Below are positions 433-56,348 of a DNA stretch of 64,000 nt, one piece after another. Every line of letters starts with the position of its first letter. Position 1 is the stretch's first letter. Location: contig CAVSZB010000006.1 in the NCBI GenBank assembly GCA_963732385.1, forward strand, positions 1-64,000, given 5' to 3'. Origin of the DNA: an uncultured bacterium (GTDB lineage: Bacteria > Krumholzibacteriota > Krumholzibacteriia > LZORAL124-64-63). Under the pieces are notes generated by a model. That model did not search any database, had not been told where the DNA came from, and saw nothing but the letters and a program-made list of their open reading frames with translations. The translations under genes were made by a program, and so were the position numbers.

Positions 433-1143
433 TCATCGGTAGGTGCTTTTCACCGCGCCCCACGAAGTCTCCGCAGACGACACGGCGCAATCCTGCACTT
501 CGAAGGACGTCACATACGCCATCCAGCACCCTTCGACCCCGCCGTACACATAGGAGAGGTACCCAATCAAGCGCACAGGCTGTCCCGTGTCAGCGTAGGC
601 GTCCAGCTCGGGGGGCCACGATTCGATTACCACGTGAATTCCGCAGGAGCCAGGACAGGGGATCCCGGGCAACATCAGGCCGCCCCCATGGAACACCGCC
701 GTGTGGGCATAGACGCTGGTGCCCGAGCTGGCGAGAACCCTGTCCGTGCAGGAAATGTAATAGTATTGGTAGCTGGTGCAATCATACAACGTGCAGGGAT
801 CGAGAGGCTGGCGCTGGGCGTCCACGAAGAAGACTCGGTACTCGTAGAACAAGTCCGGCACTGCGGTCGCGTCCACCAGAGTGAAGCGCGCCTGCCCCGA
901 CTCGGGCCGAGCGAGCATTTCGGCGTTCAGCCTCACCTCCGAACCGCACTCCATCAGGGTGCGCCGCTGCACATCAAAGCCAGCCAGCACGGCCGGCGCA
1001 TCCGCGACATCGACCGTGAACGCGACCAGCCGTGCGCCGAACGGCCCCACGACGGCTTCCATGGAGATGGGTTCAGTAGCCTGCACTGGATTCACGCAAA
1101 GTGCGGTCACAACGCCCGCAGCGCAGAACCACCTCAATATCAT
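433..1143 (-). CDS. Secreted hypothetical protein with C-terminal SWGAVKSTYR motif
   Basis: 236-aa ORF with GGAGG RBS, signal peptide-like N-terminus (…LCVNPVQA), Cys-rich body and C-terminus TSWGAVKSTYR resembling two other proteins in the window. Confidence 0.8.
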   Translation of the reverse strand: MILRWFCAAGVVTALCVNPVQATEPISMEAVVGPFGARLVAFTVDVADAPAVLAGFDVQRRTLMECGSEVRLNAEMLARPESGQARFTLVDATAVPDLFYEYRVFFVDAQRQPLDPCTLYDCTSYQYYYISCTDRVLASSGTSVYAHTAVFHGGGLMLPGIPCPGSCGIHVVIESWPPELDAYADTGQPVRLIGYLSYVYGGVEGCWMAYVTSFEVQDCAVSSAETSWGAVKSTYR

Positions 1144-1183
1144 CGCGGCACCTCCACAGTAAGCGGCAAGCCAGGCAGCCCGG

Positions 1184-1349
1184 CGATTGTACTCCCCCCC
1201 CCCCGAATCGACCAGCGCGGGGGGGATATGTCCCGGGAGTTTCCTCCTACTGGGCTCGGGTCGCCGGGGCTCGCCGCAGGCGCGGGATTCGGGGTCCCGT
1301 AGCGAAGTCAGCCTCGGCCCGCAATCCCCCGCTCCGATTCGACTAGCGC
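1184..1349. repeat. Intergenic repeat element, copy A
   Basis: Aligns by eye with 1683-1910; core CCCCGAATCGACCAGCGC near the left end and variant CTCCGATTCGACTAGCGC at the right end. Confidence 0.8.
1186..1214 (-). promoter_or_regulatory. Putative sigma70-type promoter with poly-C(11) tract in the spacer
   Basis: Minus-strand TACAAT at 1191-1186, about 43 nt upstream of the ATG at 1143; TAAAAT at the equivalent position in copy B; -35 weak (TGGTCG). Confidence 0.45.
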
Positions 1350-1350
1350 A

Positions 1351-53312: not shown

Positions 53313-53756
53313 CTAGCGAGCGAACAGGAGATTGAGCGTCGCCTGGTCCGGCGTGCCGTCCTCGTTGAAGTCGTATTCGACGGAGGCGCCGCTGAGCCCC
53401 AGGCTGTCTTCGGAAAACGCGACGTCGAATTGCCACGAGAACAGCATTCCCTGTGGCGTCAGGCTCAGTACGTCGCTGCTCAGGGTCCACGTTCCATCCG
53501 TCGTGCGCTCTGCTTCGGCGAAAGGCGCGACGACGAGCCGAAATGTTTCATTGTCGTTGAGGGTGAGCGTGCCGGTTCCTCCGAGCGCGACAAGATCGAC
53601 GGCGGCGCCCGCGGGAATGCTCACGAACTCGACCTTGGTGGCGTTCCAGACGCCCGTGATCTGCTCCGGCTGCGGACCGGTGGATTTGTCCTCGCTGCAT
53701 CCGACCATCACGCAGAGCAGAATTGCCGCCGTCACGATTCGCCAGCTCGTTCGCAT
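53313..53756 (-). CDS. Lipoprotein with lipocalin-like domain
   Basis: Lipobox MVGC; ITGVW and GTWTL motifs; GGGGAGG RBS. Confidence 0.78.
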   Translation of the reverse strand: MRTSWRIVTAAILLCVMVGCSEDKSTGPQPEQITGVWNATKVEFVSIPAGAAVDLVALGGTGTLTLNDNETFRLVVAPFAEAERTTDGTWTLSSDVLSLTPQGMLFSWQFDVAFSEDSLGLSGASVEYDFNEDGTPDQATLNLLFAR

Positions 53757-53813
53757 GTCGGCCTCCCCGCTCAGGAATTGCTTCCCGGCGATCTGGGCTA
53801 TACCCCGAGTCCG

Positions 53814-53841
53814 CTCCTCTGCCCCGAATAGACCAGCGCGG
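53814..53841. repeat. Isolated core of the 1184/1683 repeat family
   Basis: CTCCTCTGCCCCGAATAGACCAGCGCGG vs CTCCCCCCGCCCCGAATCGACCAGCGCGG. Confidence 0.65.
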
Positions 53842-54026
53842 TGGTTCGCCTTTGAGCGGCGGTCGCCCTGAGCACGCGGCTCAGACCCTATGGAGTGACC
53901 GGCCCCCCTGTCGTACCGTCGTCACCGTCGTTCTGGTGGTTGGCGATGGCGACCGGGTGGCAAGCACCGCAGTCGCGGGTTAGCGCCTTTCGGCGCCAGA
54001 GCCGCATACGACGAAGGGAGCCGGCC

Positions 54027-55091
54027 ATGGCCAGTATAACCTACGTGGGGCTGGATGTGCACAAGCGGACGATCGCGGTGGCGCTGCGCCGCCCGGGGAC
54101 CGACGAAGTGGTCGAGTGGCAGGTCGCCCACGAGCCGACGGCCGTGCGGCGACTGATCCGCAAGCTCAAGGCGCACGCCCCGGTGGCCTGCGCCTACGAG
54201 GCGGCCGAGATCCCCTGCCTGGTCGCCGCCCCGTCCCTGATCCCGGTCCGCTGCGGCGACCGCATCAAGACCGATCACCGCGACGCCCGCAAGCTGGCCC
54301 AGTTGTTCCAGGCCGGGCTCCTGACGGCGGTGCACCCGCCGACAGAAGACGAGGAGGCGGTCCGCGACCTGTGCCGCTGCCGCGAGGACGCGCAACTGGA
54401 TCTGGTGCGGGCCCGGCACCGGTTGGGCAAGTTCCTGCTGCGCCGCAGCTTGAGCTTCCATGACGGCTACCTCTGGTCCCAGCGTCATCGCACTTGGATG
54501 CACGGCTTGACGTTCGCGCGGGCCGCCGACCAGGTCGTCTTCGAGGACTACCTGCTGGCGGTCGAGCAGCAGGAGGCCCGAGTCGCCGCGCTGGACGAGC
54601 AGTTGGCCGCCGTCGCGGATCAGGAGCCGTTCCGTGCGCCGGTGGTGGCCCACCTGCGCTGCTTCCGCGGCATCGACACGGTCACCGCCGTAAGCCTGGT
54701 CGCGGAGCTGCACGATGTGCGGCGCTTCGCGTCGGCTCCCGCCCTCATGGCCTATCTCGGGCTGGTCCCCAGCGAGCACAGCAGCGGCGAGCATCGTCGG
54801 TGCGGCGGCATCACCAAGACCGGCAATCGCCACGTGCGGCGCCTGCTGATCGAGACCGCCTGGCACTACCGGCACAAGCCTACGGTGGGGGTGAAACTGG
54901 TCAAGCGCCGGCACGGCCAGCCGCCCGTGGTCATCGCCCGCGCCGACCGGGCGCAGCAGCGCCTGTGCAGGCAATACCGGTGCATGGTCGCCAAAGGCAA
55001 GCATCACAACACGATCGTCGTGGCCATCGCCCGCATGCTGGTTGGATATCTGTGGGAGACGCTGCGCACTGCGCAGCCTGTCGAAGCCTGA
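54027..55091 (+). CDS. IS110 DEDD transposase/recombinase, probably damaged by an in-frame deletion
   Basis: YVGLDVHK, YEA, KTDHRDA, GLVPSEHSSG, ITKTGN; the segment normally following YEA looks missing. Confidence 0.9.
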   Translation: MASITYVGLDVHKRTIAVALRRPGTDEVVEWQVAHEPTAVRRLIRKLKAHAPVACAYEAAEIPCLVAAPSLIPVRCGDRIKTDHRDARKLAQLFQAGLLTAVHPPTEDEEAVRDLCRCREDAQLDLVRARHRLGKFLLRRSLSFHDGYLWSQRHRTWMHGLTFARAADQVVFEDYLLAVEQQEARVAALDEQLAAVADQEPFRAPVVAHLRCFRGIDTVTAVSLVAELHDVRRFASAPALMAYLGLVPSEHSSGEHRRCGGITKTGNRHVRRLLIETAWHYRHKPTVGVKLVKRRHGQPPVVIARADRAQQRLCRQYRCMVAKGKHHNTIVVAIARMLVGYLWETLRTAQPVEA

Positions 55092-55109
55092 ACAAACGGA
55101 ACGGTCCGA

Positions 55110-55320
55110 CGGTCGGAGACGGCGGATGAACGCAGGCACGATCCGGAGAATCCGCGTTATCGGTGTGCGACTGGGCCATTGGGTCCAGACTCACGATCTC
55201 AGAGTGCGGTCCCTCCCGACGGAGCACGGTCATGCGGCTCGGCGCCGGCTTGCCGGCGCAACCCGCGTATATCAGAGTGACTCGTCGTCGAAGCGACCTG
55301 CCTCGTCCGCCGCCTCCGGA
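55110..55320 (+). ncRNA. Putative bridge RNA (seekRNA) of the IS1111-type element
   Basis: Two hairpin-centred loops; flanks TATCGGTG (55158-65) and CTCAG (55198-202) match the target, GGTC (55228-31) and ATATCAGA (55269-76) match the circle junction; boundaries approximate. Confidence 0.7.
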
Positions 55321-55396
55321 TGTCGGAACCGGGAAAAGACAAGAGAACGGCCGCCTCCCCGCAGGAAAGCGGCCCTTGACACAGGGTCACTCCATA

Positions 55397-56071
55397 TCAG
55401 CGATAGAGGGACTTAACCGCGCTCCAGCTGACCGCTTCGACGGGCACCAGCGTGCCGTTGACAGTGAAAACCGGCGAGTTCGGGCCGGCGGGCAGCGGTC
55501 GCAGGCCGAGCACTCCGTAACAGGGGCTGTCGACGAACAGGCTGTCGAAGTAGTAATACAATGTCGGCAGCCCGTCGTCCGTCCCGCCGTTGGCTCCGAC
55601 ACCCATGCCGATCGCAGCGGGAGCATTGTCCAGCGCCATGAGGCCAACGCGCATCAGGCAGCGGTCGATCAGGCAGGTGGTGGATGACGGCCAGAGCATG
55701 TTGTTATAGGAGTAGCGCGCATCGATGTCAGGATTCGTGTTCGGGAAAAATACGCCGCACAGTCCGCCCAGTGATGTATCGAAGTTGATGATCCAGAGAT
55801 TAGCGGGAATCTCGATATGGCACAGCAGCTGCATCTGGTAGTACATAAGAAACATCGGATGTCCGACCGCCGCGGGCAGGTCCGAGACCGGGCGATCAAG
55901 GAGCAGATACAGCCAGAACGGCTCATAGGGCGCGATTGTGAGCCGACTTGCGTTTCCGTCCTCGTCTGCGTAGAGCCCGACGGAGATTTCGCTCACTTGC
56001 GCCAGGCCCAAAGCCGCGGCGCCCGCGACCGCAACGGCCAACATTGCCGCACAAAGCCACCTGAACTTCAT
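55397..56071 (-). CDS. Secreted hypothetical protein with C-terminal SWSAVKSLYR motif
   Basis: GGAGG RBS, signal peptide MKFRWLCAAML…, SVGLYADEDG; stop codon coincides with the IS right junction. Confidence 0.82.
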   Translation of the reverse strand: MKFRWLCAAMLAVAVAGAAALGLAQVSEISVGLYADEDGNASRLTIAPYEPFWLYLLLDRPVSDLPAAVGHPMFLMYYQMQLLCHIEIPANLWIINFDTSLGGLCGVFFPNTNPDIDARYSYNNMLWPSSTTCLIDRCLMRVGLMALDNAPAAIGMGVGANGGTDDGLPTLYYYFDSLFVDSPCYGVLGLRPLPAGPNSPVFTVNGTLVPVEAVSWSAVKSLYR

Positions 56072-56348
56072 GGCGCCTCCCGCCGCAATCGTCGCCCCAC
56101 TTGCAGACCGAAGCGTCACCCTGAGTGTAGGGGGTTGGTTCTGACGCGGCAAGTACTCGGCCGCGCCCCGGCGGGTTCATGCCGCAGTCGGCCGGTATCA
56201 TGATGCTGCACAGCGACTTCAGGACTCCCGAGGCCTTTTTCTTGTCCCTGATGCTCGGGCTCGGTAAGCTGCGGCGGCCCCGGACGACGCACGAATTCTC
56301 GTGAGGAGCCGGAAAGGAATCCGTTCCCCCTTGCAGGAGGATTCGCTC

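Follow-up and report, generated by a model that had tools for sequence, protein, structure and literature searches.

What determines that an insertion sequence comes to rest exactly at the last codons of a host gene, and what becomes of that gene? The question is raised by a 64,000-nucleotide (nt) stretch of DNA, hereafter the window, from the genome of an uncultured bacterium (LZORAL124-64-63; G000). Window positions 53885-55398 hold a 1.5-kilobase IS1111-type (IS110-family) insertion sequence whose right end lies directly against the Tyr-Arg-stop end (TAT CGC TGA, 55405-55397 on the minus strand) of a gene for a predicted secreted protein. We consider it very probable that this is an RNA-guided element that targets the stop codons of genes whose products share a C-terminal motif. 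Relatives were sought among 91 genomes of the same bacterial family, and the search scored at most four candidates per genome, so the copy numbers given here are lower bounds.

The boundaries of the element are defined by an empty site and by its relatives. A 2-base-pair (bp) core, AG (CT on the gene strand), is present on the plus strand at 53883-53884 and again at 55399-55400. It occurs once in the same-genus genome G015, which holds an exact empty site (CTC-AG-CGATAG, within ...acgcggCTCAGCGATAGAGGG...) where the left flank (window 53316-53882) adjoins the right flank (55401-56199) with two bases between them. At least 10 further full-length copies, 72-81% identical to the window element, are found in five other genomes of the family (G086, one; G001, three; G002, four; G058, one; G042, one). 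The alignments of all 10 begin at window position 53883 and extend to 55402 or beyond. The left core copy is AG in all 11 full copies, with left junctions that read CT-AG-ACCC in nine and TC-AG-ACCC in two, and the right junctions read ..CCATATC-AG-CGG.. in eight and ..CCATATC-AC-CGG.. in three. Because CT-AG on the left is accompanied by TC-AG or TC-AC on the right, the common core is the dinucleotide AG, and the TC that precedes the right core copy is, as judged from these junctions, part of the element. An earlier interpretation made from the letters of the window (the sequence-only reading) had reconstructed the empty site as GCGGC-TCAG-CGATAG; this sequence is indeed present in G015, and only the extent of the core needs to be shortened from TCAG to AG. 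Four copies in G002 are identical through ..CCATATC and diverge immediately beyond it, which indicates that the right end, together with a hairpin described below, moves with the element. In contigs from other metagenomes, a relative with 92-95% identity forms a stand-alone 1555-nt unitig with ends at 53881 and 55399.

The element carries the features expected of the IS1111 group, as the sequence-only reading had supposed. A perfect 12-bp subterminal inverted repeat, conserved in all 11 full copies, is located 4 and 2 bp inside the cores (TATGGAGTGACC at 53889-53900 and GGTCACTCCATA at 55385-55396, the latter forming with the terminal TC the segment 55385-55398, right after which the G002 copies diverge). 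Its length falls within the 7-17 bp that the accessible part of one report gives for IS1111 elements (PMC11208160). The non-coding region downstream of the transposase gene comprises 307 nt (55092-55398) versus 142 nt upstream (53885-54026), and a longer downstream region is typical of the group according to the portion of a second report available to us (PMC11187229). The same portion describes a GL-P----SG motif for IS1111 transposases, to which GLVPSEHSSG corresponds in the window protein and in its relatives L005 and L033 (PMC11187229). Both domains that mark the IS110 family are recognized: the window transposase matches Transposase_20 (PF02371; 1.4e-21) and, because of a deletion, only profile positions 92-150 of 155 of DEDD_Tnp_IS110 (PF01548), and the intact protein of L005 matches both, with PF01548 covered from position 1 to 150 of 155. 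L005 also scores 251.7 bits against the NCBIfam model transpos_IS110, for which the cut-off is 140.

In all 11 full copies, distributed over six genomes, the right end sits at the Tyr/Phe-Arg-stop of a gene, a different one each time, whose product ends in xWGxxKxL(Y/F)R. The pattern W/F/Y-x-x-x-K-x-x-(Y/F)-R describes all 11 product ends, as in DWGSVKSLYR, TWGDVKALFR, and SFGALKAMFR, and we refer to genes of this type as motif genes. Three internally deleted copies (L009, L011, and L015) are also located at motif-gene ends, as are two more distant relatives: L058 (61% protein identity, from a record titled Candidatus Eisenbacteria), at a gene ending ..SWGQLKARFR, and L082 (50% identity, from a Candidatus Krumholzibacteriia record), at a gene ending ..GVKALYR. 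Thus, an expectation of the sequence-only reading, that other copies would lie at Tyr-Arg-stop-like ends, holds for every full copy and for these five additional loci. That reading had only one insertion in view, in agreement with the one full copy and two right-end remnants that we find in G000.

A count that is blind to the flanks leads to the same picture. When the right-end box GGTCACTCCNDDT was searched in all family loci with no condition on the flank, motif-gene ends were found in 26 of 29 distinct flanks. Of the other three flanks, two belong to left ends that were met in reverse orientation (L010 and L028) and one to another element's right end in L028; the guide CCGGGCTA of that element equals its own target at eight of eight positions. 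Further junctions with ..VKNTYR- and ..VKSLYR-type ends are found at contig ends of run X2. The word T[AT][TC]CG[CG]T(GA|AG) has 187 sites in G000 and only 11 of them are motif-gene ends, so that exclusive occupancy of such ends is not predicted by this 9-nt word alone. All the same, such ends are the only sites occupied by the full copies found (11 of 11), in keeping with the preference that the sequence-only reading had anticipated.

The region downstream of the transposase gene is predicted to encode a bridge/seek RNA (55132-55301, plus strand) that is closed by pairing of GCAGG (55132-55136) with CCTGC (55297-55301). We aligned the 3' regions of 13 elements (eight from the focal clade together with L058, L056, L059, L062, and L081) and evaluated the alignment with RNAalifold and pair counts. 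The consensus fold includes the closing stem followed by two units, each composed of a stem, an internal loop, and a hairpin. In this 43-pair structure, 93.4% of the cells are paired and 10 of the 43 pairs show compensatory change. None of 500 shuffles reaches the observed pairing or covariation score and one of 500 reaches the compensatory-pair count, although for related sequences this control cannot be taken as a probability, and the same sequences had contributed to the structure. Sliding the 3' partners by 1-3 columns leaves only 27-42% of cells paired.

The loops of the predicted RNA match both strands of the target and both ends of the donor. The 5' strand of the target loop, TTATCGGTGTG (55157-55167, plus strand), corresponds to the gene strand TATCG-CT-G at the Tyr-Arg-stop and matches the element's own target at seven of eight positions. 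The 3' strand, CTCAGAG (55198-55204, plus strand), corresponds to the top strand CTC-AG of the target. In the donor loop, the 5' strand GGTC (55228-55231, plus strand) agrees with the left end read on the bottom strand (GGGT-C), and the 3' strand ATATCAGA (55269-55276, plus strand) equals the predicted circle junction ...ATATC-AG-A.... The sequence-only reading had placed guides at TATCGGTG (55158-55165), CTCAG (55198-55202), GGTC (55228-55231), and ATATCAGA (55269-55276) and the gene end at TAT CGC TGA, and each of these is where it was said to be.

By themselves such matches are short and weak, but the loops covary with both targets and ends, covariation with targets being one of the checks that this reading had named. 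The guides fit the stop type in all 11 full copies, with TG/TCAG in the two at TGA stops (L001 and L005) and TA/CTAG in the nine at TAG stops. The left-end-truncated copy L009 (= L079) also has TG/TCAG guides, but its original stop is unreadable because the left flank is lost. TATCG, TACCG, and TTCCG guides accompany TAT, TAC, and TTC codons in L001, L009, L004, L005, L007, and L058, and this agreement of codon and guide is not seen in the G002 copies, L008, L033, and L037. Over 8 nt, identity of guide and own target ranges from five to eight positions in the focal clade and is complete in L007, L058, L059, and L060; the last two share the guide GCTAGCTA. Among the distant relatives, whose guides match other targets, L056 has GTACACTA against CTACACTA (seven of eight), L063 has the guide GGGGCTA, and L072 (AGGTTCTA) differs in its guide from the nearly identical L073-75 (AGGCCCTA), the right flanks being AACCT and GGCCT, respectively. 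The 3' target strands of distant relatives (TTAG, GTAG, or TAAG) are the same as their left-flank ends. The donor loop behaves similarly. GGTC occurs with left ends AG-ACCC or AG-ACCA and TGTC with left ends AG-ACAA, and ATATCAGA is invariant in the focal clade, with counterparts ATAGCAGA in L056 (right end ..CCATAGC) and ATCTCAG in L072-L080 (right end ..CCATCTC).

An exact-match test of targets against whole 3' regions separates self from non-self only weakly (means of 5.8 and 4.3), as the first base of the core is often mismatched in guide 1, and an in-register comparison on the alignment was used in its place. The short guide matches exceed chance, because from one relative to another these loop positions vary in step with the target and the donor ends.

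Insertion has a defined consequence for the stop codon of the host gene. Crossover takes place between the last base of the Arg codon and the initial T of the stop, and since ..TC forms the end of the element, the stop after insertion reads TGA whatever it was before. Stops reconstructed for the sites of the 11 full copies are TAG in nine and TGA in two. Occupied ends carry TGA in 32 of 33 cases and TAA in one, in a set that was filtered for Y/F/W-R/K ends and is biased toward them. One orthologous gene ends in TTC CGC TAG in G016, where a spacer and terminator of its own come next. In both G000 and G015 it ends in TTC CGC TGA, and the box and hairpin of the right end come after that. The stop of the target gene in the window (TGA, 55399-55397) now consists of the core T and the element's GA. 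The native stop of the ortholog at the empty site in G015 is also TGA, and the open reading frame (ORF) is unchanged relative to that ortholog, which confirms the earlier statement that the insertion leaves the gene intact.

The right end also carries a terminator-like hairpin (55374-55349) with a T-rich tail, occupying 55339-55374 on the minus strand and oriented for the transcript of the host gene. It has an 11-bp stem, lies twenty-odd bases inside the right end, and is the sole terminator-like site in 53700-55600; the fold of its region compared with shuffles gives z -0.83. The hairpin is kept in all focal copies, in the solo remnants described below, and in L058, L056, and L082, and inspection by eye revealed no clear counterpart in the relatives from Solirubrobacterales, in which the gene adjoins the left end. 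From its form and orientation, we infer that this structure might terminate the host transcript.

A trail of partial copies is found beside the complete ones. In G000, the motif genes at C4:12188 and C5:377576 are followed by TGA, the box, and the hairpin with no transposase gene, and in other genomes many motif genes retain no more of the right end than its last 60-180 nt. The remnant lengths are 178, 109, 109, 86, and 82 nt, with many of ~75 nt, and the left limit of the solo copies is rather uniform, just past the A/G-rich run of the hairpin. We read the remnants as decay products that are retained because they now supply the stop and terminator of the gene. The uniform left limit might result from deletion between the hairpin of the element and a similar native terminator, such as the one with the stem GGCCGCCTCC...GGAGGCGGCC in the G016 ortholog.

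Separately, two other G000 motif genes, at C7:1435754 and C5:213011, are followed by TAG-TATTTTTGGTGACC..hairpin and TGA-TCATTGC..hairpin, respectively, which look like strongly decayed right-end remnants. If these are real, ~5 of the 17 motif genes in G000 bear traces of the element.

These data lead us to propose the following mechanism. The 3' non-coding region would give rise to a structured RNA of ~170 nt, and this RNA would guide a DEDD recombinase. One loop, by means of two short guides, would read both strands of TA(Y)/TTC-CG(C/G)-T-(AG/GA), a word that comprises the last Tyr or Phe codon, the Arg codon, and the stop of genes ending xWGxxKxL(Y/F)R, and a second loop would read the junction at which the two ends meet in the excised circle (..CCATATC-AG-ACCC..). 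Exchange would occur at AG, so that CT on the gene strand would provide the third base of the Arg codon and the T of the stop. The right end would face the gene in every insertion, the stop would be rebuilt as TGA with no amino acid change, and the right-end hairpin could terminate the host transcript. On decay, copies would leave the box, the hairpin, and TGA as the 3' end of the gene. Since the C-terminal motif is common to many otherwise unrelated secreted proteins (~17 in G000), many tolerated landing sites would be on offer.

In a group of insertions, the target has CGG before the stop and thus AC as the core on the element strand (L006, L034, and L035, from G002, and L082). All four have the donor AG at the left junction and retain the target AC at the right junction. 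Symmetric exchange of two strands followed by random segregation would give mixed outcomes, and the uniform result hints that the information of one strand wins.

The target gene (55397-56152, minus strand) codes for a predicted secreted protein of 251 amino acids that ends in SWSAVKSLYR. G000 contains 17 ORFs that end in the motif W..xK..(Y/F)R, and a simple pattern detects signal-peptide-like N-termini in 15 of the 17. Outside the last 16-37 residues, most have no detectable similarity to one another. A choice-of-anchor W domain is present in one and an LTD domain in another, and the others match no Pfam family. Neither Pfam nor NCBIfam contains a family model for the C-terminal tag, and a literature search on C-terminal sorting in Krumholzibacteriota found no description of it. 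A common C-terminus of this kind fits a putative sorting tag on otherwise unrelated secreted proteins.

Two of the motif genes, at window 433-1350 (minus strand) and at G000:C5:402804-404108 (..ETSWGAVKSTYR), show 92% identity across 302 residues, and the DNA that follows each is identical. The former is located at the very start of the window's contig, and the pair has arisen by recent duplication or reflects an assembly repeat at the contig edge.

Downstream of the target gene is a lipocalin-like gene of lipoprotein type (window 53313-53756, minus strand) that matches Lipocalin_4 below the Pfam cut-off. In the empty site it lies ~125 nt downstream of the motif gene on the same strand, and in the window the element with its terminator now separates the two.

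The transposase gene of the window copy (54027-55091, plus strand) codes for a DEDD protein of the IS110 family with 354 amino acids. Aligned with the intact protein of 366 amino acids (L005 and L033), it lacks 13 residues after YEA in the RuvC-like domain. Here the contigs of runs X2-X4 have 31 extra letters and repeat the 8-mer 54197-54204, which identifies the event as a 39-bp (13-codon) in-frame deletion between 8-bp direct repeats. With its catalytic domain so affected, the window copy is probably inactive and unable to move on its own. The intact length slightly exceeds the 330-350 amino acids quoted for IS1111 transposases in the accessible text of one study (PMC11187229).

Several observations weigh against the explanation that we favor. 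The guides span only ~9-10 nt, guide 1 of the window element begins its core with G where the target has C, and several focal elements match their own target at only five or six of eight positions. The guides of L062 and L081 could not be set in register with their targets (two of eight), and agreement with the guides is poor at the single insertions L061, L069, and L080. A scan of 53500-55800 against Rfam with E-values up to 1 returned no bridge-RNA family, its sole match being a sub-threshold ribosomal-leader motif (E 0.14) inside the transposase gene. When the window sequence is folded singly (55133-55310), it is no more stable than shuffles (z -0.43). Both the predicted RNA and its presumed guidance of the enzyme are drawn here from sequence comparison. 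None of the sequencing runs listed for this stretch is recorded as RNA, and those compared here are contigs, which carry no information on expression. Frameshifts are present in seven of the 10 other full copies, and these may reflect decay or long-read sequencing errors. The landing site itself is perhaps not free of cost, as the insertion may be polar on the downstream lipocalin-like gene. The sequence-only reading had spoken of a multicopy safe harbour at conserved gene ends; the position of all 11 full copies agrees with the choice of site, but neutrality is not certain given the separation from the lipocalin-like gene. Finally, the excess at gene ends may reflect the loss of harmful insertions elsewhere and not recognition of the gene context. 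This last point is developed in a reading by which a 9-10-nt word is targeted by sequence alone and selection does the rest, insertions into the many other matching sites, most of them within genes, being lost with no adaptation to the gene family. It differs from our explanation in emphasis and not in mechanism, and we regard it as rather unlikely while giving it real weight. The guides do stop short of the Lys and Leu codons, two exact TATCGCTGAG sites elsewhere in G000 are unoccupied, and relatives in other phyla are found at the stop codons of unrelated genes. However, guides in lineages of 50-81% identity keep tracking the same gene-family end through its TGA/TAG and Tyr/Phe variants. Moreover, the stop-restoring TC and the gene-facing hairpin are found where the right end abuts the gene, and the hairpin is not evident in Solirubrobacterales, where the left end does.

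The solo right ends invite two further readings. The box and hairpin could be the native 3' untranslated region of the gene family, with the true right end of the element near 55306-55340, as the last 80-110 nt recur with no transposase beside two other motif genes in G000 and many elsewhere, and the T-run of the hairpin is on the gene strand. We consider this very improbable indeed. The module is entirely missing from the empty site in G015, the four G002 copies are identical through it and diverge exactly after ..CCATATC, and the G016 ortholog has TAG with a different spacer and terminator of its own; these three findings contradict it. In addition, the left end carries the matching inverted repeat, and remnant lengths are graded (178, 109, 86, and ~75 nt). 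Somewhat less improbable, although still unlikely, is that the solo copies are small parasitic modules moved by the transposase, like ssr9 of ISPpu9, for which the available excerpt of a report describes solo copies and circles of the small-RNA module alone (PMC12288879). A rather uniform left limit would suit such modules, but they would have to move with no left-end repeat, as just one such repeat was found in G000. Remnants of intermediate length also exist, and the left flanks of the solo copies do not have the CT/TC ending expected of guided insertion. Deletion between the hairpin of the element and a native terminator of the same stem might produce the same limit.

A bolder extension of this explanation can be put forward tentatively, with clearly less than even confidence. 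Under it, the lineage has specialized on the stop of one gene family with a C-terminal tag across at least two groups at the level of candidate phyla, the right end serves as a replacement 3' end with stop and terminator, and its hairpin is enough like the terminators of the host for hairpin-to-hairpin deletion to remove the body in time. Many of these secreted-protein genes, a sizeable share, would now have stops and terminators derived from the element.

More distant relatives were found in other bacterial orders. Relatives from Vicinamibacterales (L059-L061) are located at the stop codons of long open frames of unrelated genes at three of three sites, with the right end facing the gene. Those from Solirubrobacterales (L072-L080) are at stop codons at five of seven sites, with the left end facing the gene and TAG formed from T and the AG core. 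Both counts are weak because open frames are long by chance at such guanine-cytosine (GC) content. In GC-rich genomes, a target with TAG or TAA in it may be what leads the entire clade to the ends of genes.

Additional elements and motifs were noted in the course of this analysis. L014 (G015:C11:176985-180081, positions 1501-1597) is a solo left end of 97 nt, preceded by ..GTT-AG and followed by no other element sequence. Its 99% identity to the left end of the window element indicates that the same variant was recently present elsewhere in the genus. L028 (G027:C166) is a second, different IS1111-type element of ~1.48 kilobases in the same bacterial family, which has the same inverted-repeat box, another transposase sequence, another target (..CCGGG-CT-AG), and a loop that matches this target at eight of eight positions.

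Just inside the right inverted repeat, TTGACA is present at window 55376-55381 and at the same place in L056, L059, L063, L066, L072, and L082 (as TTGACT in L082), so that the motif is retained in relatives from records of five differently named phyla. By eye, no -10-like hexamer is present 16-18 nt from it in the linear copy or the predicted circle junction, and a promoter consensus scan gave a single promoter-like site, on the minus strand inside the gene. The motif may instead be an element contacted by protein or RNA. A 405-codon open frame on the minus strand (window 53922-55139) is antisense to nearly the whole element and is probably a composition artefact at 69% GC. In the part of a study on IS900 available to us, an antisense ORF (hed) of that element is said to have no start signals of its own (PMC8141618).

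The locus and its relatives amount to a natural experiment in comparative genomics, with dozens of independent insertions, an exact empty site, and guides that follow changes between TGA and TAG and between Tyr and Phe. If our explanation is correct, a short programmable guide can be tuned to a sequence that is constrained by a protein motif, which would open many harmless landing sites to a mobile element, and such an element can bring along a stop and terminator that keep the host gene working. The natural pairs of guides and targets can also be used directly to test the recognition rules of the IS1111 branch, which has been little studied.

Another member of the IS110 family has previously been linked to a signal of gene expression. 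IS900 of Mycobacterium avium subsp. paratuberculosis reportedly targets translation initiation signals, a finding ascribed to Doran et al. in 1997. That element resembles the one described here in its use of an expression signal and its single orientation to the gene, and it differs in using initiation signals and not stops. A search of the literature on IS1111 target sites and stop codons, judged by titles and abstract openings, revealed no report of a coding-end target among the papers listed. The field of bridge- and seekRNA recombinases is young, and their natural targets in the accessible parts of two reports are repeats such as repetitive extragenic palindromic (REP) elements, attC sites, and transposon ends (PMC11187229, PMC11208160). 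Thus, the class of mechanism is known, and as far as this search and our reading go the new aspects are a protein-motif-constrained coding end and stop as target, a stop-restoring right end that bears a terminator, and a trail of remnants.

The available portions of the relevant reports allow a closer comparison. ISPpu9 with ssr9 is an IS110-family system whose 3' small-RNA module also exists as solo genome copies, but those are reported to arise from independently formed circles, whereas the solo copies here are the last 60-180 nt, contain no guide loops, and look like deletion remnants (PMC12288879). IS621 and the IS110-group bridge RNA (Durrant et al. 2024, PMC11208160) are similar in having target- and donor-binding loops and a 2-nt core, CT, common to donor and target. 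IS621 differs in that its RNA is in the left end and its inverted repeats are very short, and bridge RNAs were predicted in the right end of 93.0% of IS1111 elements (PMC11208160). The closest likeness is to ISEc11, ISPa11, ISKpn4, and ISPst6, the IS1111 elements for which seekRNA has been described (Siddiquee et al. 2024, PMC11187229). Like the present element, they encode a DEDD transposase in which the GL-P----SG motif occurs, they bear subterminal inverted repeats, and their transposase gene is followed by a long stretch of non-coding DNA. Each lineage also has a specific target of its own, matched on both strands by two short RNA segments that overlap at the crossover. Their targets are REP, attC, or transposon-end sequences, in contrast to a coding end with its stop. 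Unlike them, the element described here, known from its sequence alone, appears to rebuild the stop of its host gene, to present that gene with a hairpin facing it, and to code for a transposase of 366 amino acids.

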